NCBI GenBank assembly: GCA_963666835.2
Contig: CAXXGO010000001.1
Coordinates: forward strand, 256,001 to 320,000
DNA length: 64,000 bases
Source of the DNA: Phycisphaerae bacterium
GTDB lineage: Bacteria; Planctomycetota; Phycisphaerae; UBA1845
Direction of reading: 5' to 3'
Shown: positions 1,771 through 25,484 of the stretch, piece by piece
How positions within the stretch are numbered: the first letter of the stretch is position 1
Layout of the letters: every line of letters starts with the position of its first letter
The notes under the pieces: model-generated
Database searches by the model: none
What the model saw: only the letters and a program-made list of their open reading frames with translations
What the model was told of the DNA's origin: nothing
Translations under genes and position numbers: made by a program

Positions 1771-2195
1771 GCGCCAGGCGTGGATCGAACCAGGACGGAC
1801 GGCATGGGCCCACTTGTTAGCCCGTGCAGTGACAGATTAGAGGCATCAACAACGAGACAGGCCTCGTTCCTCGACCATGCCCTACCAAGCTCTGGCAGCG
1901 GTTCAATCCCCCATCGCCAAAGCGATGAGCCACCCGACCGAGCATCAGTACCTTGACCGGCAGGGATTGGCTGTACGATGTATTCGCCTGGGGCGGGTCG
2001 CTCACGCTCACCGTACTGATGTCGGGTCCCCCACCGCCAAAGCGATGAGCCATTCGACCGCTGGGAAAAAGAACGAGAACCCTGGAACCGAGGCCTGCCG
2101 TCCGGCGTCCAACAGGGAGATTGGCTCGCGGGGCGCCTCCCGAATTAGGATCGGGAGGTCTCTCCCGCACTCGTTCACTAGGGAGGATGTTCGTC

Positions 2196-3401
2196 ATGAT
2201 CGCATTTCAGATTGCCCTGCTTCACCTCGCCACAGGGGTCTTCCTGCTCCACAATGCCGACCCAACGGCACCGGTCGACGTTGGGGTCCGTGATCTCGTA
2301 GCGGGAAACAACGCTTTTGCCTTCGACCTTTATGAACAACTGGCTTCGAAGGAAGGTAACCTCTTTATCGCCCCCCAGAGCGTCTCGATCGCGCTGGGTA
2401 TGACGTATGCCGGAGCCCACGGCGATACCGCCGACCAGATGGCGGCCGTCATGCACTTTCCGTCGGAGCGGGATCAACTTAACCGGGCGTTTGCGGCCTT
2501 GCTTGCCCAGCTCGGGACGGAGTCGGGTGACGCTGCGCAGCAGCTCAATATTGTCAATGCGTTATGGGGACAGCGGGGTTACGGGTTCCTTGACGAGTTT
2601 CTCGCGCAGACTCGCCTGAGCTACGGTGCGGGGTTTCGCGAGGTGGATTTCCGACGCGCGTCAGAACAGGCTCGAGACGAAATCAACCGCTGGGTGGCCG
2701 GGCAAACTCAGCAGAAGATCCAAGAGCTGCTGCAGGCCGGCGATGTGGACGCCGCCACCGCTCTCGTGCTCACCAACGCGGTCTACTTCAAAGGCGCGTG
2801 GGCCAAGCAGTTCGACCGCGGCGACACGAGGAGCGAGCCCTTTCATTTCGGCCATCTTCGCGAGCTGAATGTGCCGCTGATGCATCAACTCGGGCAGTTT
2901 GCCTTCGCGAGTGAGCCGGACGTCGATATCCTGGAACTGCCGTTCGACGGTGGCGGCCTGGCCATGGTCGTCGTACTGCCGAAAGACATCGACGGACTGT
3001 CGAGCCTGGAAGCGGGCCTCTGTCCGGAAGCTCTGAATCGATGGGTCGGCAGCCTTCGGCGGCAGCCGGTTCGGGTGACGATCCCGCGCTTCACCGTGGC
3101 GACGAGGGTGGATCTTGCCGACGAGCTGGCCGGTATGGGGATGCCGGACGCCTTCGGCGCCGAGGCCGACTTCTCCGGCATGACCACGGCTCACAAGCTG
3201 TTCATTTCCAACGTGTTTCACGAAGCTCGCATGGAAGCGAATGAAGAAGGCGCCGAGGCCACCGCCGCCACGGCCGTGGTGATGACTAAGGGACCTCAAC
3301 CTGCGGCTTTCCTCGCGGATCACCCGTTCGTGTTCGTAATCCGTGACCGGCTCAGCGGGAGTATTCTGTTCATGGGCCGCGTTGTGGACCCCTCCGCGTA
3401 A
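2196..3401 (+). CDS. Serpin (serine protease inhibitor), probably secreted
   Basis: NNAFAFDLY, NAVYFKGAW, hinge EEGAEATAAT and FLADHPFVFVIRD...ILFMGRV motifs. GGAGG lies before ATG 2196. Confidence 0.92.
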   Translation: MIAFQIALLHLATGVFLLHNADPTAPVDVGVRDLVAGNNAFAFDLYEQLASKEGNLFIAPQSVSIALGMTYAGAHGDTADQMAAVMHFPSERDQLNRAFAALLAQLGTESGDAAQQLNIVNALWGQRGYGFLDEFLAQTRLSYGAGFREVDFRRASEQARDEINRWVAGQTQQKIQELLQAGDVDAATALVLTNAVYFKGAWAKQFDRGDTRSEPFHFGHLRELNVPLMHQLGQFAFASEPDVDILELPFDGGGLAMVVVLPKDIDGLSSLEAGLCPEALNRWVGSLRRQPVRVTIPRFTVATRVDLADELAGMGMPDAFGAEADFSGMTTAHKLFISNVFHEARMEANEEGAEATAATAVVMTKGPQPAAFLADHPFVFVIRDRLSGSILFMGRVVDPSA

Positions 3402-3669: not shown

Positions 3670-4035
3670 CTAGTCGGTCGCCGCCGGACGATTGCCGTGC
3701 TCGGCGCGAATGACGCTGCAGATACCGCCGCGTACGGTCCAGCTCGACTCGACCTGCATCCACCGGGGACTGCAGCAGGCCAGCAGGTCATCGAGGATCG
3801 CATTGGTAACGTCTTCGTAGAAGATCCCCTCGGCGCGATAGCCTTGAAGATATAGCTTGAGACTCTTGAGTTCCACGCAATCGGCGTCGGCGACATACGT
3901 GATTCGGATAGTGCCGAAGTCCGGCTGTCCGGTTTTCGGGCAAACGCTCGTGAACTCCTGAACAGTGTGCTCGATCACGAAGTTGCGCGCCGGTTTCGGG
4001 TTGGGGAACACCTCCAGGACAGTTCGATCAGCCAT
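3670..4035 (-). CDS. queF: NADPH-dependent preQ0 reductase (type I)
   Basis: EFTSVCPKTGQPDF, ELKSLKLY (QueF motif) and VRGGI. Confidence 0.93.
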   Translation of the reverse strand: MADRTVLEVFPNPKPARNFVIEHTVQEFTSVCPKTGQPDFGTIRITYVADADCVELKSLKLYLQGYRAEGIFYEDVTNAILDDLLACCSPRWMQVESSWTVRGGICSVIRAEHGNRPAATD

Positions 4036-4555: not shown

Positions 4556-4581
4556 AAAAGCCATGGGACGCCCGTCGATCC

Positions 4582-5160
4582 AGGTGCGGTTGGCAGATCG
4601 TAGGGCGGCAGCGAGCCCCTTGGGGCGACAGATCCTTCTAGCCCCACGGCGTAAGCCTGGGGAACCATTCGGGCGTTCCGCGCCAAGCCCCTTGTGGGCG
4701 GCAGATCGCCTCGGTGTTCGAGTGCGCCGCCGGTGATTCGACATCACACAGGGAGATGTTGGCGCCGGCCGGGTGCATAAGCCTATTCGAAGTGCCGCCC
4801 TGCCGGGCTGAAGACGCCTGAGCCGCACGTCCCCAGGGCTGACGCCCTGGGCTGGAATCGGTGCCGCCCTTGCGGGCTGGTTTCGCGAAGCACACGATGA
4901 TCGCCTCTTCGCGCGATATGCGCCTTTGCGGCAGGTCTCGTACCTCGACCGTGCCCTACAGAGACACGAACGTGGCATAGGACTTCGTGTGCCTCGCCGC
5001 TAAAGCGATGGGCCACCCGTTCAGTACCACGACCGTCAGGGAGTGGCCGTATCGTGGCATATAGTTGGCACGAAGCGCGTAAAGGCCGGTCGCTGACGCT
5101 TGCGGTACTGATTGCGATACACGCCTTTACGGCAGATGTCGTGCCTCGACCGTGCCCTAC
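4582..5160. repeat. ~580-bp REP mosaic, direct-repeat copy 1 (copy 2 at ~7923-8499)
   Basis: Near-identical sequence at an offset of ~3339. The ORF track gives identical spurious peptides for both copies. Confidence 0.9.
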
Positions 5161-5213
5161 GAAGGTTTGAGTCCATTCCGCGACCTGTTCGAGAGGCGAG
5201 ATCGTCCTGCGAA

Positions 5214-5774
5214 TCACGGCGCGATCTCCCTCCCACATTCCGGGCAAACGCCGGACTCGTTGCCGGTGAGGTCGTAGCCGCAGCCACCACAAAGCCCGCG
5301 CTTACGGCGACATCGCCGACGAAGCGGGCCGCGGATGAACACTATGGTCGGGTAGGCGGCAAAGAGGACGAAGAAGAACCCTCGGGGCACAACAAGCGCC
5401 CGCAGGAAGACGTGGCTCGGGAAGACATCATCCATGCTAGCGAAGTTCACTATTTTCCCTTTGTCGAGGTATAATGTGCCGACACAGATCGCGTGAAACC
5501 AGGCCTCGGACTCCTCATCCCAAGCATCGCTATCCGCCTGCCCGGCAAACAGGCGTAGGTAGCCGATGGTAGAGTGCCAAGAATGGGACACGGAAAAGAG
5601 GAACCTATCCGGCCCGCTATCCGACCGTCCGAGATACAAGCGTGCAGGACATGGTTTTCGCACCGGACAGACTCCGGAAACGCCCCACACTTCGACGGCG
5701 GCCATCGCCAGCGCTCCCAACGTCAACCCGACGATGATGGCCACGCGGAGCATTCTAAGCATCTTGCGAATCAC
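5214..5774 (-). CDS. Membrane protein with C-terminal zinc ribbon (CxxCGYDLTGNESGVCPECG), cassette 5
   Basis: GTG start overlaps the upstream TGA. N-terminal TM, variable loop, second TM, Arg-rich patch, then CxxC..CxxC. Confidence 0.8.
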   Translation of the reverse strand: MIRKMLRMLRVAIIVGLTLGALAMAAVEVWGVSGVCPVRKPCPARLYLGRSDSGPDRFLFSVSHSWHSTIGYLRLFAGQADSDAWDEESEAWFHAICVGTLYLDKGKIVNFASMDDVFPSHVFLRALVVPRGFFFVLFAAYPTIVFIRGPLRRRCRRKRGLCGGCGYDLTGNESGVCPECGREIAP

Positions 5775-6880
5775 GGCGCGATCGCCCTCCCACATTCGGG
5801 GCAAACACCGGACTCGTTGCTGGTGAGGTCGTAACCACAGCCGAGACACAACCCGCGCTTGCGGCGACGGCGCCGACGTCGGTGACGAAGCGGGCCGCGG
5901 ATGAAGGCGAGAGCGGGGTAGGCCGCCAATATGACAAACGGAAACCAGCTTGGCACCTCAATAGTCTGATGCACGTATTGCCGACTACGGCGTCCGCCCT
6001 TCTTGTCTTGCGACCACCCGAAGGGTCCGAGTTGAATCGTCCGGGGTATGATACCACTTGGATCCGCTACGTAGTCCCGATAGGACACGCGCACTTGACT
6101 CGGCAGACACTCGAACTCCAGGGCGTGGTCGCAACGCGGGTATGGCTCCCCGAATCTTAGGGTGAACCGACTACCTTCGCTCGCCCGCCGGGAGAAACTC
6201 ACTCTCTGGGCCCAAGACGTCCAGTGGGCTGTCTCCCCGGGGAAGGCCAACACCGCCCACGCGGCGCCGTATACAACAGCTCCGAGCATGCATCCGAGCA
6301 GAGTGACTTTGCGAATCACCGAGTAATTCGCCCGCCCGCAATCGGGGCAAACGCCGGAGACGTTGCCCATCAGGTCGTAGCCGCAGGCGATACAGAAGCG
6401 ACGCATCCGCCGGCGCCAGCGACGAAGCGGACCTCGGGCGAAGGCCAGTGCCGGGTACGCGGCCAGAAGGACAAACGGAAACCAGCTTGGCACCCTGATC
6501 GTCCGCCACTCCTTCTCGCCGATACGGTCGCAGCCCTTATCTTGCCCCCAACTGAAGCCCCCCCAGCCTATCCACTTCGAAATGACGCTGCTGGGGCCCT
6601 CCGTGAAATCATACAGGGACGCGGAGACGCGATGTGGCAGAACACGAAACCACAGCTCGTAGTTCCATTGTTTCTTCCTTCGCGGTTCGCCGGGGATCCA
6701 CTGCGCATCGCCAACGCCCAGTGTGAGCATGCTTCCAGCGCTCGCCCGGCTCCAGAAATACACTCTGCGGCCTTGGGACTCCCAGTCGGTCATTTCCTCC
6801 GGGAAGGCCAGGACCACCCATGCGGCCACATAAGCAATCGCCCCGAACGTGCATCCGAACAAGATGATCTTGCGAATCAC
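5771..6880 (-). CDS. Two fused cassettes (3+4) of the same membrane/zinc-ribbon family
   Basis: GTG 6880 overlaps TGA 6877. An internal CIACGYDLMGNVSGVCPDCG is followed by a second VIRK start motif at 6319. Confidence 0.75.
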   Translation of the reverse strand: MIRKIILFGCTFGAIAYVAAWVVLAFPEEMTDWESQGRRVYFWSRASAGSMLTLGVGDAQWIPGEPRRKKQWNYELWFRVLPHRVSASLYDFTEGPSSVISKWIGWGGFSWGQDKGCDRIGEKEWRTIRVPSWFPFVLLAAYPALAFARGPLRRWRRRMRRFCIACGYDLMGNVSGVCPDCGRANYSVIRKVTLLGCMLGAVVYGAAWAVLAFPGETAHWTSWAQRVSFSRRASEGSRFTLRFGEPYPRCDHALEFECLPSQVRVSYRDYVADPSGIIPRTIQLGPFGWSQDKKGGRRSRQYVHQTIEVPSWFPFVILAAYPALAFIRGPLRHRRRRRRRKRGLCLGCGYDLTSNESGVCPECGRAIAP

Positions 6881-7842
6881 GGCGCGACCTCCGTACCGCA
6901 TTCCGGGCAAACTCCGGACTCGTTGCCGGTGAGGTCGTAGCCGCAACCGAGACATAGTCCGTGTTTGCGGAGACGGCGTCGACGTCGATGACGAAGCGGG
7001 CCGCGGATGAAGGCGAGAGTGGGGTAGATTGCCAGGAGAATCGCAACGCCCCAAACGAACCGCGCACCGATCAGGCCGCGGACACGTTCGTTGCCCAGGT
7101 CGTTTGTCGTCGACCGGACAGCTAGACCGATGAGACGCTCACGACGTGATTGGACGTGCCCGATCCACTTGGGGTGGGTCTTCGTCCGTCGCCGTCCGGA
7201 CTGCTCTCCGTATTTGAAGGCGGAGAAGTATAGATGCCCGCGACCGACAGAGACACTTACGACGTGGCCAGAAGGGAGACGATATCCACTGATTCCCCGA
7301 ATTCTCCATGGGTTAGACCGCAGCGGCCCGACGGTTATTGTCGCAGCGAGGCTACCCGTTACGATCGCCCCCAGCGTTAAGACGACGATGACGGCCACGT
7401 GGATTGTCCTGACGGTTCTGCGGATCCACACTACTTGGGCCGTTCTGCGAAACGTGGCGACGACCCGGTTGTAGCCGCGCATCAGGGGGTGGTTCGCTGG
7501 AAGCGGATAATCGCGCCGCCACGCCAGGAAGGTTGGGATGCCGATGATCGCCAGCGGCAGCCAGAGCGGTATGACGAGGGTCGGATCGGCAGGTTTGTTA
7601 CAGGTGTAGCGGGGAAGCCAACGGTATAGAGCAGGTCCGTCCTTTCGAATCATCCAACTGAACTCGTTCAGTTGCTGATCTTTGGCGACCAGAACCCCAC
7701 CGCCATGAACGTCACCATAGTAGTGTCCGCAGCACCAAAGAAAGCCCCACCGTGCGGACAGAACGATCATCGCCGCGAGTAGCCCGCACCCCACAAGCCC
7801 CGCCCGTATGAGGATTCGTCGGTTCCGAGGATTGGTCGGCAT
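6877..7842 (-). CDS. Fused cassettes (1+2) of the membrane/zinc-ribbon family
   Basis: Unit 1 ends IPLWLPLAIIGIPTFLAWRRD with no Zn ribbon. Unit 2 starts near 7431 and ends CLGCGYDLTGNESGVCPECG. Confidence 0.75.
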   Translation of the reverse strand: MPTNPRNRRILIRAGLVGCGLLAAMIVLSARWGFLWCCGHYYGDVHGGGVLVAKDQQLNEFSWMIRKDGPALYRWLPRYTCNKPADPTLVIPLWLPLAIIGIPTFLAWRRDYPLPANHPLMRGYNRVVATFRRTAQVVWIRRTVRTIHVAVIVVLTLGAIVTGSLAATITVGPLRSNPWRIRGISGYRLPSGHVVSVSVGRGHLYFSAFKYGEQSGRRRTKTHPKWIGHVQSRRERLIGLAVRSTTNDLGNERVRGLIGARFVWGVAILLAIYPTLAFIRGPLRHRRRRRLRKHGLCLGCGYDLTGNESGVCPECGTEVAP

Positions 7843-7922
7843 GTGCCAATGGTAGTGCCCCCGACCGGTGAGGCAAGAAAACAGGTAGGGGCCGCTCTGC
7901 GGACCAACTCGCTCGCCGACGT

Positions 7923-8805
7923 AGGTGTGGTTGGCAGATCGTAGGGTGGCATCAAGCCCCTTGGGGCGACACGCCCTTCTAGCCCCAGGCGTGAGCCTGG
8001 GGGACCGTCCGGGCGTTTCGCATCAAGCCCTTGTGGGCGGCAGATCGCCTCGGTGTTCAAGTGCGTCACCGGTGATTCGACATCACACAGGGAGATGTTG
8101 GCGCCGGCCGGGTGCATAAGCCTATTCGAAGTGCCGCCCTGCCGGGCTGAAGACGCCTGAGCCGCACGTCCCCAGGGCTGACGCCCTGGGCTGGAATCGG
8201 TGCCGCCCTTGCGGGCTGGTTTCGCGAAGCACACGATGATCGCCTCTTCGCGCGATATGCGCCTTTGCGGCAGGTCTCGTACCTCGACCGTGCCCTACAG
8301 AGACACGAACGTGGCATAGGACTTCGTGTGCCTCGCCGCTAAAGCGATGGGCCACCCGTTCAGTACCACGACCGTCAGGGAGTGGCCGTATCGTGGCATA
8401 TAGTTGGCACGAAGCGCGTAAAGGCCGGTCGCTGACGCTTGCGGTACTGATTGCGTTCCGCGCCTTTGCGGCAGGTCTCGTACCTCGACCGTGCCCTACG
8501 GGGACACGAACGTGGCATAACAACGCGTGTTGCCCACCGCTGAAGCAGTGGGCCACCCGTTCAGTACCACGACCGTCAGGGAGTGGGCCGGCACTGTACT
8601 CGCCAAGGGCGGGTCGCTTACGCTCGCCGTACCGATGGTGGCCGGTCGCTGACGCTTGCGGTGCCGCGCCTTTGCGGCAGGTCTCGTGCCTCGACCTGCC
8701 CTACAGAGACACGAACGTGGCATAGGGCTTAATGTCCCCCACCGCTAAAGCGATGGGCCACCCGACGCTAGAGCAATGAGCCACCCGACTCGACCTGCCC
8801 TACGG
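7923..8805. repeat. REP mosaic: direct-repeat copy 2 (7923-8499) plus a further ~200-bp internal tandem unit
   Basis: GTAG REPs at ~8269, 8470 and 8675. GGGCCACCCGTTCAGTACCACGACCGTCAGGGAGTGG is repeated. Confidence 0.85.
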
Positions 8806-9753
8806 TCTGGGGTGGAACTTGGTGTGGATGTGCTTGAGTTGCTCTTCGTCGACGTGGGTGTATATCTGGGTGGTGGTGACATCGGCGTGGCCCAGTAACT
8901 CCTGCACGACACGCAGATCGGCTCCGCCGCCGAGCAGATGCGTGGCGAAGCAATGCCGGAGAGTATGCGGGGATAGTCGACCCTCGATCCCCGCCCGCCG
9001 GGCATACTTGCGGACCAAACGCCAGATGTTCGTGCGGTCCAGCGGACGCCCTGTTCGGGAAAGGAAGATCACCGCGGAGTGGCCGGTGCCGAGGAGGCGC
9101 GAACGAAGCGTATCGACGTAGTCGGATACGGCCTCGATGGCCATGCGCCCCACCGGGATGATCCGCTCCTTCCGCCCTTTGCCGATGCACCGGACGTAGC
9201 CGAGCTTCAGGTTGATCTGGTCGAGCGTCAAACCGGCCACTTCACTCACGCGCATGCCGGTCGCATAGAGCAGCTCCAGCAAGGCGACGTCGCGAAGATA
9301 GAACTCCTCCGCAGGGTCCGGAGCGCGGAGCAAGTTCTCGACCTGATCGTAGTGGATGGTATCGGGAATCGTTCGCCAGCGCCGCGGCGACTCCAGCAGG
9401 GCCGTCACATCCCGCCGCAGCACGCGCTCGGCGTGCAGATGCCGCAGGAACACCTTGATGCACGCGAAATGACGCGCGATCGAGGATATTGCCAGCCCGC
9501 GGCGTTGCAGTCCGATCAGGTGACGTTGCACGTCCTCGACGGAAATCTCCTCGGGCTCAACGTCGGCCGCGACGAGATCGTCCCAGAATTCCCGCAGGTC
9601 GCGCTGGTACGCGGTAACCGTCTCACCGGCTAAGCCGCACTCGAGGAAGATGTAGTCGAGGAAACGTTTGACTACCGGTGCCGGCCGGGGGTCATGCCTA
9701 ACCGACCGTTTCGCTACAAGAGTCGCCGTATTCATGAAGACCTGTCGCCGCAA
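8800..9753 (-). CDS. xerD: Site-specific tyrosine recombinase XerD
   Basis: LYATGMRVSE, GKGRKERIIP, HTLRHCFATHLL and LLGHADVTTTQIYTHV...FHPR. Start may be 9735. Confidence 0.9.
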   Translation of the reverse strand: MRRQVFMNTATLVAKRSVRHDPRPAPVVKRFLDYIFLECGLAGETVTAYQRDLREFWDDLVAADVEPEEISVEDVQRHLIGLQRRGLAISSIARHFACIKVFLRHLHAERVLRRDVTALLESPRRWRTIPDTIHYDQVENLLRAPDPAEEFYLRDVALLELLYATGMRVSEVAGLTLDQINLKLGYVRCIGKGRKERIIPVGRMAIEAVSDYVDTLRSRLLGTGHSAVIFLSRTGRPLDRTNIWRLVRKYARRAGIEGRLSPHTLRHCFATHLLGGGADLRVVQELLGHADVTTTQIYTHVDEEQLKHIHTKFHPRP

Positions 9754-22982: not shown

Positions 22983-25484
22983 ATGAACGTAACGAAGTAT
23001 CGTCTCATCATTCCCGGGCTGTTAGTGATCGCAGCTCTGTTGGGTGCGGTCGTCAACTCGGCTGCTTCGCGGGCGGCAGAGGAGGTGGGCGTCTTGGCCG
23101 ACGTTCCGGTCTCGCCGCAAAGCTGCACTACAGACGAAGACTGCAACGACGGCAACGCGTGTACCGTAGACTCGTGCGAAGCGGACGTGTGCGTGAACGA
23201 AGCGATCGTGCCGTGCGTGCCCTGCGATGATCCCCCCGTATGCCCGCCGGTCGAGTTGGTCTTCGTGATGGACACTTCCGGATCGATGGGCGATGAAGCT
23301 GCAGCGTTGTGCAACAATATCGGCCAGATCACGGCCGAGCTCGAGGCGGTCGGTGTTTCGGTGAGTTCTCACCTTCTGGGTATAACGGAGACTCCGGGCG
23401 GGGTGTTCGATTGCCTGACTTCAGATGTGGTGACTATGCTCGGCGGGAACGTTCCGGGCGATGCTGCCGGCTGTCCCTTCCCGGGGACGTTTGCGGATCA
23501 CGAGTCGTGGGGGCCGGCGACGGCCATCATCGCCGAGCGGTTTCCCTGGGCGGCTGACGCGGTACGGGTGGTGGTTCCGCTCAGCGACGAGGGGCCGTGC
23601 AACGGCAGCCTGCCGGACGGATGTAACGCTACGGGTGACGACGGTGCTTCGATAGCCAATGCCATCACAGTGGCAACCGACAACGGAGTAACGGTCTCGC
23701 CGATTACCGGCACGGGTTCGGACAGTTGTGTTACGACGTTGGCAGAGAACCTCGCTGCCGGCACCGGCGGCGTCACGTTCCAGTCAAAGGACCCCGGCCT
23801 GGACTTGGCCGGCGCGGTTCATGCGATTGTTCTGGACCTTTGTGAGCCCGCTCCCTGCGACGACGGCAATGATTGCACGGTCAATGACCGCTGCATCGAC
23901 GGGGTGTGTCTGGGCGATACCCCCGACGATCTGCTGATCCCCTGCGACGAAGATTCGGACTGCGAGCCGTACGCAAGCAAGTTCGGCTGGTTCTGCGAGG
24001 AATCGCGTTTTGACAAGTTGGCCGGTTACTGCAACTGCGAATCGCCCACCCCGCTCTGCGTTGAGTTTGACAGGGCATGTTACGAGGAGGGGGGCGTGGT
24101 GGACGCGCGGATCGTCATGGGATACGGCACCGCGGAAGTGGCCGGCGGGCAGTTTCTGATGGAGTATGACCCGAGCTGCGTCGAGTTTGTCTCGATTGAG
24201 CCTTGTGACGACTCGATCTTCGTAACGGTTATCGCGGAAGGCGTGGACGAGACCGCCGGGCGAATCTGGTATGCCGCTCTTGCCTACGACCCAGTTACGC
24301 AGACCGCCTGGTCTACGCAAGGCCCGCACGATATTGCGTGTATGACGTTCAACAAGCTGCCGGGTTGTGATTCGTGCAACATTTGTTTGCTGAGCCAGAA
24401 CCCCCAGAATACGCTACTGACAGATAATCACGGGCAGAGCGTCTGGCTGGAGAACTGTGTGTGTAGCGAGGACATCACGGTTATTCGCGATACCGAGATC
24501 GTCTGCCCGGAGAGCATGTCCGTCGATACCGATGCGGGACAGTTGTCCGCAGTGGTCACCTGGGATGATATCCAGACTTCCTCGAATTGCGGCGAGGCGG
24601 TGGAGCTGGAATGTATGGCGACGCACAGTCTGGGGATCTCTATTGACCATCTGATTCAGAACGGAGGGACGTTTCCCGCCGGAGTAGCAACGTTCTACTG
24701 CATGGGGAAGGACTCCTCGGTGTGTTACGACGAGGATGAATGTTCCTGGACGATCGAAGTCAACGCGGTTAATACTGTGGAAGCTTCCATCCAACTCTCT
24801 CCCCCGGTGAGTGCGGGGATGACTGAGCGGTGTATTGAGTTCGAGTTCTTCGCAAACTGTGTCTCGCCTCCGACGGTGGTCCAGGAGCTGGTGGTCTTCG
24901 GCGGACCGTATAGTCTTCCGGGAGTCAGCGAGGATGTGATTCTGTCGATTCCGGCCAATTTGTACGAGTGCGCCACGGCCCGAGATCCACTTCACACGCT
25001 GCGGTCTACGACCAGGATGGTGGCCGAGGACGGGGTGTGGAAGGTCAAGTTTGCCGGCGACCCGATCTATGGGGGCAACTGGCTGGTCGGCGGGGATCTG
25101 ACCAACGACGGCCGGATCGACGCTCTTGACTTGGGCGCTTTCTTCGCCCATCCGCAGGGAGAACTCGCGGAAAACCCCGTTTGCCAATCGGAGGTGGTCC
25201 ATCCGGACATAGACGGTGACGGCATCGTCGGCGCCGTCGATCAAGGGATCATCGTGCAGAATTGGGGAGAGGTATCCATGGATAGTTGTTGCCCGACGGG
25301 CGGCACGTCCTCGGTGGATCCGCCCGTGGACGAGATCTCGGTTAAGGAACTTCGCAGACGTGGACTGGGCCATTACGGGGCTGCGGACCGCAACAATGAT
25401 GCGGTCGTCAACATCGACGACGGCACCGCCGCGGGGCCAGAGACATCGCCGACGGCAAAACGGACGAGCCTGCCCCGCAGGTAG
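22983..25484 (+). CDS. Secreted VWA-domain protein with Cys-rich repeats, cohesin-like, HYR-like and dockerin-like modules
   Basis: Signal peptide, MIDAS VMDTSGSM, CDDGNDCTVNDRC repeats, VAGGQFLMEYDPSCVEF and GDLTNDGRID/DIDGDGIV. Confidence 0.75.
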   Translation: MNVTKYRLIIPGLLVIAALLGAVVNSAASRAAEEVGVLADVPVSPQSCTTDEDCNDGNACTVDSCEADVCVNEAIVPCVPCDDPPVCPPVELVFVMDTSGSMGDEAAALCNNIGQITAELEAVGVSVSSHLLGITETPGGVFDCLTSDVVTMLGGNVPGDAAGCPFPGTFADHESWGPATAIIAERFPWAADAVRVVVPLSDEGPCNGSLPDGCNATGDDGASIANAITVATDNGVTVSPITGTGSDSCVTTLAENLAAGTGGVTFQSKDPGLDLAGAVHAIVLDLCEPAPCDDGNDCTVNDRCIDGVCLGDTPDDLLIPCDEDSDCEPYASKFGWFCEESRFDKLAGYCNCESPTPLCVEFDRACYEEGGVVDARIVMGYGTAEVAGGQFLMEYDPSCVEFVSIEPCDDSIFVTVIAEGVDETAGRIWYAALAYDPVTQTAWSTQGPHDIACMTFNKLPGCDSCNICLLSQNPQNTLLTDNHGQSVWLENCVCSEDITVIRDTEIVCPESMSVDTDAGQLSAVVTWDDIQTSSNCGEAVELECMATHSLGISIDHLIQNGGTFPAGVATFYCMGKDSSVCYDEDECSWTIEVNAVNTVEASIQLSPPVSAGMTERCIEFEFFANCVSPPTVVQELVVFGGPYSLPGVSEDVILSIPANLYECATARDPLHTLRSTTRMVAEDGVWKVKFAGDPIYGGNWLVGGDLTNDGRIDALDLGAFFAHPQGELAENPVCQSEVVHPDIDGDGIVGAVDQGIIVQNWGEVSMDSCCPTGGTSSVDPPVDEISVKELRRRGLGHYGAADRNNDAVVNIDDGTAAGPETSPTAKRTSLPRR

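Follow-up and report, generated by a model that had tools for sequence, protein, structure and literature searches.

Five tandem units on one plan

The window analysed here is a stretch of 64,000 nucleotides from the genome of a Phycisphaerae bacterium. Its minus strand carries, from 7842 to 5214, five tandem units spread over three open reading frames (ORFs; Table 1). Each unit is laid out as a transmembrane (TM) segment, a variable beta-domain, a second TM segment, an arginine run and a Cys4 ribbon, so that the common plan proposed in an earlier note on this DNA is borne out by the ORFs and their translations. The sequence RGPLR..RRR-CxxCGYDLxxNxSGVCPxCG is present in four of the units (units 2–5). 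The earlier note described unit 1 as lacking the ribbon; we find instead a decayed ribbon that still aligns to the intact ends of paralogues and keeps a GY and an ECG remnant. The similarity noted among the 3′ ends of the units holds at the DNA level, with 71–88% identity across 160–170 nt, and the longest exact stretches that these ends have in common measure 14–32 nt. The 3′ end of unit 2 is nearest to that of unit 4, despite their unrelated loops.

All genomic copies of the junction motif GCGCCGTGATTCGCA, three in 6.0 Mb, lie in the array (at 5208, 5765 and 6871). At every copy GTG and TGA overlap by 4 nt, confirming the stop/start overlaps previously seen in one motif at 6877, 5771 and 5214. 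All five loops are open frames. They had been called highly variable, but they are not all unrelated: the loops of units 3 and 4 are 37% identical and the loop nearest to that of unit 3 belongs to another array. The junction at which units 3 and 4 are fused has one extra base in comparison with a similar junction in another array. Beyond unit 5, a stub (VIRRTISP) begins at 5217 and enters a GTAG-type REP, an 11-mer of which has 411 exact copies in the genome. The stub and its passage into the REP had been recognised before and taken for an empty last slot; the more plausible view is that a unit was lost here and only its truncated start is left. Stubs are also found at the end of array A2, inside array A5, and in L062 and L081. 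The G+C content of the array (61%) matches that of the genome, and a promoter scan returned one site against 1.1 expected by chance.

Table 1. Positions of the array, its units and its surroundings in the window
Feature	Position	Strand	Remarks
ORF of units 1 and 2	7842–6877	-	In-frame fusion; ORF/translation
ORF of units 3 and 4	6880–5771	-	In-frame fusion; ORF/translation
ORF of unit 5	5774–5214	-	ORF/translation
Unit 1	7429–7842	-	TM, short beta loop, TM, decayed ribbon; fused in frame with unit 2
Unit 2	6877–7428	-	TM, loop, TM, Arg run, ribbon; ribbon codons 6954–6895
Unit 3	6320–6880	-	GTG start at 6880; fused in frame with unit 4; AlphaFold2 model
Unit 4	5771–6319	-	Same loop subtype as unit 3
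Unit 5	5214–5774	-	GTG start at 5774; stand-alone ORF; unrelated loop
Stub VIRRTI...	5161–5217	-	Start of a lost sixth unit; enters REP
Junction motif	6871–6885, 5765–5779, 5208–5222	-	4-nt GTGA stop/start overlap
Downstream flank	4569–5161	.	REP composite, direct repeat of 7910–8500
Upstream flank	7910–8500	.	REP composite, direct repeat of 4569–5161; more REPs up to ~8780
xerD	8800–9723	-	XerD-type recombinase, housekeeping; context, outside the system
queF	3670–4035	-	Context

Predicted fold and extent of the family

Hydropathy analysis gives two TM peaks in four of the five units and one peak over threshold in unit 3. An AlphaFold2 model of unit 3, computed from a 125-row alignment, has a mean pLDDT of 93 and contains a helix (residues 2–25), eight beta strands (31–131), a second helix (133–159) and the Cys4 ribbon. 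For each unit the predicted fold is of this kind: two helices form a hairpin, and the eight beta strands make up a domain inserted between them. Under the positive-inside rule the beta domain would be periplasmic and the ends of the protein cytoplasmic. The beta domain would then be the putative toxin-binding part, facing the periplasm, and the arginine run and ribbon, in the cytoplasm, may act as a shared anchor or assembly tag.

The family is very large. A profile built from 23 units matches 51,167 clusters (50% identity) at E ≤0.001, 11,974 clusters at E 1e-10 and 140 at 1e-30, counts that include ribbon-only matches. Matches to the family profile are found in 29 of 30 relatives, and the records with homologues are Phycisphaerales or Phycisphaerae by title; a phylum-wide sample of 150 other genomes, with 24 candidates scored per genome, gave a single weak match (E 1e-10).

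Searches with four unit proteins against Pfam returned ribbon matches only, all below threshold (DZR PF12773 and DUF7129 PF23455, 12–16 bits against gathering cut-offs of 25–31, E 0.01–0.2). The CxxC-x11-CxxC spacing of these two families also occurs in the ribbons of the array, which are putative Cys4 zinc ribbons; however, the array ribbons score under the curated cut-offs, and the TM-beta-TM body had no counterpart among the families and solved folds searched. With the 23 units, NCBIfam gave weak ribbon matches only (best E 0.0014), PADLOC two matches only (E about 0.03) and PHROGs none. Zinc fingers were the only matches among PDB sequences, the ESM Atlas returned only unnamed Planctomycetota clusters, and structure comparison with BFVD found no match at E 0.001. 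Against 48,161 chains, VIA-align reached a best Z of 5.2 (rmsd 5.2 across 83 residues) for a generic beta meander. Our literature search found no description of this family, and the accessible sections of PMC7159879, PMC3482391, PMC12419801 and bioRxiv 10.1101/471110 do not describe it; the supplements of PMC3482391 could list it.

Some relatives of the array genes follow RHS toxins

In this genome a ribbon-tailed ORF follows 5 of 22 RHS ORFs, compared to 4 of 2,099 other long ORFs. We also inspected 69 RHS loci in relatives, where four RHS ends had been picked for known adjacency and 75 had not. A ribbon-tailed gene comes after 11 of the 75 unselected ends, a count from kin that are not independent, the background above being that of this genome alone, and after three of the four picked ends; a wider adjacency rule gives 15 of 79. 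Immunity genes usually occupy the position that follows an RHS tip. Six of the RHS partners are of the TM-beta-TM-ribbon type (L193, L195, L196, L206, L209 and L218, the last three unselected), and two of these six share a 4-nt overlap with the stop of the toxin gene. Of the six corresponding toxin tips, four carry 7–15 cysteines, one of these four being AMOP-like below cut-off, and one tip has an HExxH motif, suggesting toxins that act outside the cytoplasm. The body of unit 1 aligns with the gene after the L206 RHS end (109 aa, 27%, pairwise E 2e-8).

Genes of other kinds come after about 85% of RHS ends, and the majority of family members do not adjoin an RHS. Neither the window nor any of 58 array loci contains an RHS core, and the arrays are therefore orphan. 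We found no cognate toxin for the five units and no homologues of the L196 toxin tip. Among 19 mostly unrelated pairs the similarity of toxins and that of their partners are uncorrelated (r −0.02, p 0.62); one duplicated pair co-varies.

Three observations on individual RHS loci are recorded here. The RHS tip at L206:4356-4823 has a weak match to the AMOP domain (E 1e-4, below cut-off). At L038 (G000:C6:1059000-1080000) an RHS cassette cluster includes four tips that each have ribbon-tailed membrane genes after them. At L037 (G000:C1:1491000-1497500) a ribbon-gene array lies by another RHS cluster and includes a likely orphan homologue of an L038 gene.

Homogeneous polyimmunity loci are described, in the available text of PMC3482391, as tandem paralogues without toxins. 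The array resembles them in being a locus of one-type tandem paralogues free of RHS toxin genes, with kin behind polymorphic toxins, and fused multi-unit proteins occur in both. It has five tandem paralogues, where at least four are needed, and no RHS core in the window; family members occupy the post-toxin slot that the definition asks for in the six TM-beta-TM cases, three of them unselected. The extended loci given in that text come from proteobacteria, bacteroidetes, firmicutes and actinobacteria only, and its single mention of a ribbon is unrelated. Since relatives of the array genes stand directly behind RHS toxin genes in related bacteria, the array probably keeps a reserve of antidotes to the toxins of rivals, and immunity genes separated from their toxins would accumulate in arrays of this sort. 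On balance we lean slightly towards viewing the locus as an orphan homogeneous polyimmunity locus directed against RHS toxins and reshuffled by homologous recombination in the ribbon block, where the immunity function is deduced from gene order.

The units could also form a receptor or adaptor repertoire, with variable periplasmic domains that sense many ligands and a constant ribbon that binds one cytoplasmic partner common to all; the proximity to RHS genes would then be a side use. The same ribbon, N- or C-terminal, is found at many other loci of the genome; in P0269, P0253 and P0264 it lies inside a CstA loop and is appended to MFS transporters. The ribbon is thus not specific to immunity, which would suit a receptor repertoire, as would the strong constraint on it and the neighbours of the arrays, which judged by eye are unrelated housekeeping-like genes. 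However, the same inspection by eye revealed no signalling gene recurring beside the arrays, and a repertoire of receptors leaves unexplained the enrichment behind RHS ends with its 4-nt overlaps. We consider this explanation credible but unlikely.

Other arrays in this genome and in relatives

Besides the array between queF and xerD, the genome holds six loci of this kind, making seven in all. In the six others xerD is absent, the order of subtypes differs, and chimeric starts, stubs and broken units are present; across the seven loci we count stubs, one nonsense codon, one frameshift and one decayed ribbon. One single unit lies between 443-nt repeats that are 97% identical and resemble a REP joined to what we presume to be a RAYT fragment. 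Using this family as query we obtained 96 loci of other genomes, which contain 56 distinct arrays. Here 86 of 112 internal junctions have an RTGA overlap, and 47 of those 86 start xIR. The coupled layout recurs in many genera, and arrays occur across Phycisphaerales. A metagenome pattern scan produced three stretches, in which there was no array of this type.

Two of the arrays in this genome border a shared 3.5-kb element, the copies of which are 91% identical and carry ArdC-N, AAA and resolvase genes. This company, with a tyrosine integrase gene, raises the question of anti-phage membrane proteins, acting in entry exclusion or as decoy receptors and kept as a variable repertoire; a membrane location and a variable outer domain would fit such a role. 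The position of family members behind RHS ends is left unexplained by it, and we judge an anti-phage role to be improbable. The two element copies are at L034 (G000:C3:438664-446991) and L035 (G000:C5:26695-37262), with the tyrosine integrase at the C5 copy, and the C3 array (L034) is interrupted by a gene with an FGE-sulfatase domain.

Probable exchange through the ribbon-coding block

Arrays A3 and A5 begin with genes that share 92.6% identity across 757 nt; inside the ribbon codons this similarity stops, and the two sequences run on into different unit types. Among 25 units, DNA similarity at the gene start tracks that of the pre-ribbon part (r 0.52, p 0.002), and similarities before and after the ribbon are unlinked (r 0.02). 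The A3/A5 breakpoint and this decoupling indicate that the exchanged unit runs from ribbon to ribbon, so that any new unit would remain translationally coupled to the one preceding it. Among 273 pairs with unrelated loops, the three most similar 3′ ends all lie within the array studied here. Order and content differ among arrays, which together with the crossover inside ribbon codons upholds the idea, already put forward in the earlier note, that the constant ends serve as recombination blocks. Reshuffling is therefore likely to proceed by homologous recombination in the constant ribbon-coding block and not by an integron, and a dedicated recombinase would not be needed. Where units are deleted or REPs inserted, one would expect stubs, decayed ribbons and fusions to remain.

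Pooled over 12 non-independent pairs with alignable loops, dN/dS is 0.57/0.86 (about 0.66) for the loops and 0.13/1.22 for the ribbons, which have the lowest dN and the highest dS. The comparison of loops with ends that had been suggested earlier thus finds the ends far more constrained; TM and ribbon parts are under purifying selection, and the constraint on the ribbon is strong. For the loops, a dN/dS below 1 is compatible with relaxed and with diversifying selection alike. Synonymous identity in the ribbons of this array is 73 of 100, a value reached by 304 of 12,650 random quartets (p 0.024, uncorrected). The excess of synonymous conservation at the ends, which the earlier note had proposed as a check, is accordingly present in this array but in none of the five others tested, and foreign genomes are mixed.

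The same ribbon block might simply breed duplications and deletions, in which case the arrays would be decaying by-products of neutral accumulation with relaxed loops. The stubs, nonsense codon, frameshift and decayed ribbon among the seven loci agree with such decay, as does the loop dN/dS. It is harder to reconcile with five open loop frames, with a unit 3 that models so well (pLDDT 93), with purifying selection on TM and ribbon parts and with a coupled layout kept in many genera, and we regard neutral accumulation as rather improbable.

Movement of domains via conserved coding motifs is known from Type III methyltransferases (available text of PMC3467074). In the lpl cluster of S. aureus, as presented in the accessible part of PMC2568036, the exchange unit likewise spans two adjacent ORFs with crossovers in a conserved coding block; the lpl block is central in the gene, whereas here it is the C-terminal ribbon of overlapping genes with no intergenic DNA. 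The esaG, tipC and tsaI arrays of firmicute type VII secretion (PMC9484751, in the portion at hand) are also strings of non-identical paralogues in which conserved gene-end blocks drive recombination, loss and expansion. They belong to another protein family and phylum, and the arrays described here differ further in that the conserved block spans the stop/start overlap and in that one genome holds seven loci.

The proposal of an orphan polyimmunity locus can be extended, far more tentatively, to Phycisphaerales at large. One antibody-like scaffold, with a constant hairpin and ribbon and a swappable periplasmic beta-sheet, might neutralise numerous RHS toxins that are unrelated to one another and act outside the cytoplasm, and might be stockpiled and shuffled in coupled arrays in which ribbon DNA is a recombinase-free cassette joint; we treat this as possible, although it could well be wrong. 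The immunity reading gives a very large unnamed family a function that can be tested, and the named toxin/partner pairs are amenable to testing in E. coli. If true, polyimmunity loci would extend to planctomycetes, and one fold adapted to many unrelated toxins, with its exchange joint in coding DNA, would be a new design of bacterial immunity repertoire.

Relation to integrons, rAID and xerD

The earlier note had suggested an integron-like cassette system or a switching antigenic-variation locus beside xerD. The best score to IntI (TIGR02249) in this 92% complete genome is 89.4 bits against a cut-off of 265 and falls on xerD itself, and the array contains 0 RYYYAAC..GTTRRRY core pairs of the attC type. 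The genes overlap, and 18 junctions fold no better than synonymous recodings of themselves (mean z −0.3), on which ground a junction hairpin was rejected. The traits of rAID are likewise absent from this array, which has 4-nt overlaps in place of intergenic repeats and no G+C skew (0.61, as in the genome).

The xerD gene lies 960 nt upstream of the array on the same strand. Its best matches are 48–77% identical and were found in 30 of 30 relatives (none from the same genus), yet no array of this type was present in the xerD regions of 18 out of 18 relatives, which does not support a mechanism linked to XerD. The spacing between queF and xerD is 650–900 nt in 5 of these 18 regions compared to 4.8 kb here. 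We infer that the array is a lineage-specific insertion and that the proximity of xerD, a housekeeping gene, is incidental. The block likely entered between xerD and queF, and the same event would have duplicated the REP composite.

Cassettes run by XerD in the manner of integrons or rAID are largely refuted, and these or a switching locus are in our estimate very improbable. The place of xerD just upstream on the same strand would favour them, as would the XerC/D genes that adjoin some polyimmunity loci (available text of PMC3482391) and a relative in which a run of N-terminal-ribbon genes follows xerD. Apart from the absence of an IntI above cut-off, of attC cores and of intergenic repeats, and the array-free xerD regions of relatives, such cassettes are at odds with the six other loci, which have no xerD, with a genome-like G+C content and with a crossover that falls in coding DNA. 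The rAID-1 arrays, in the accessible part of bioRxiv 10.1101/471110, share with this locus a co-directional array downstream of an XerD-family gene and a likely orphan immunity content. They and integrons differ from it by their dedicated recombinase, intergenic repeats and G+C skew, and rAID-1 cargo comprises many families, compared to one family here.

Several features around xerD vary among relatives. A conserved gene directly after xerD in 10 of 18 relatives is without a tblastn match in this genome (92% complete); it encodes about 200 aa with an HELYH motif and no Pfam match (for example L014:3792-4412). At L023:5543-9862 (G011), the run of N-terminal-ribbon membrane genes right after xerD numbers five; these are of a different subfamily at the same spot.

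Flanking repeats

The array sits between two direct repeats of ~590 nt, which the earlier note did not mention, with a core identical at 425 of 431 positions (Table 1). Elsewhere in the genome, copies of 100 nt or more reach no more than 85% similarity to them, and the two values together point to local duplication or conversion. A ~350-nt repeat family, present at 4600–4960 and 7950–8300 in the window, has about 40 genome copies at ~70% identity and terminates in the GTAG-type REP, with >400 copies. The genome has nine matches to Y1 transposases. Mobility driven by REPs was rejected as a general rule: at least 20 bases of repeat sequence lie immediately downstream of two of the seven loci, compared to 16% of long ORFs. 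Further along the window, ARAGORN reports a 94-nt tRNA-Ala(CGC) at 23033–23126, one of three such anticodons in the genome, which may be spurious.

Pace of turnover

Six runs from two studies contain the region. The contigs that tile the array show 0 differences in X1 and 2 in X3. The X3 allele of the nearby serpin gene (window 2121–3401) differs at 34 sites and has 4 nt inserted close to its start, and the DNA around it is almost identical. Contigs break at 31–32-nt repeats between units, among them one of 31 nt at 5883 and 6989, so that they cannot reveal deletions through these repeats, and in four runs no trustworthy alternative joint was found among them. A joint of 6409–6980 in X5 and X6 was set aside, at least the X6 contig having 14 mismatches in 74 bases and being paralogue-like. 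Depth in X3 is 9.6 across units 3–4 compared to 13–17, with other single-copy pieces at 10–14. As contigs of two studies contain the same array, turnover is either slow or unseen. In one unit of array A3 we observed a variant with seven loop residues and three other positions changed.
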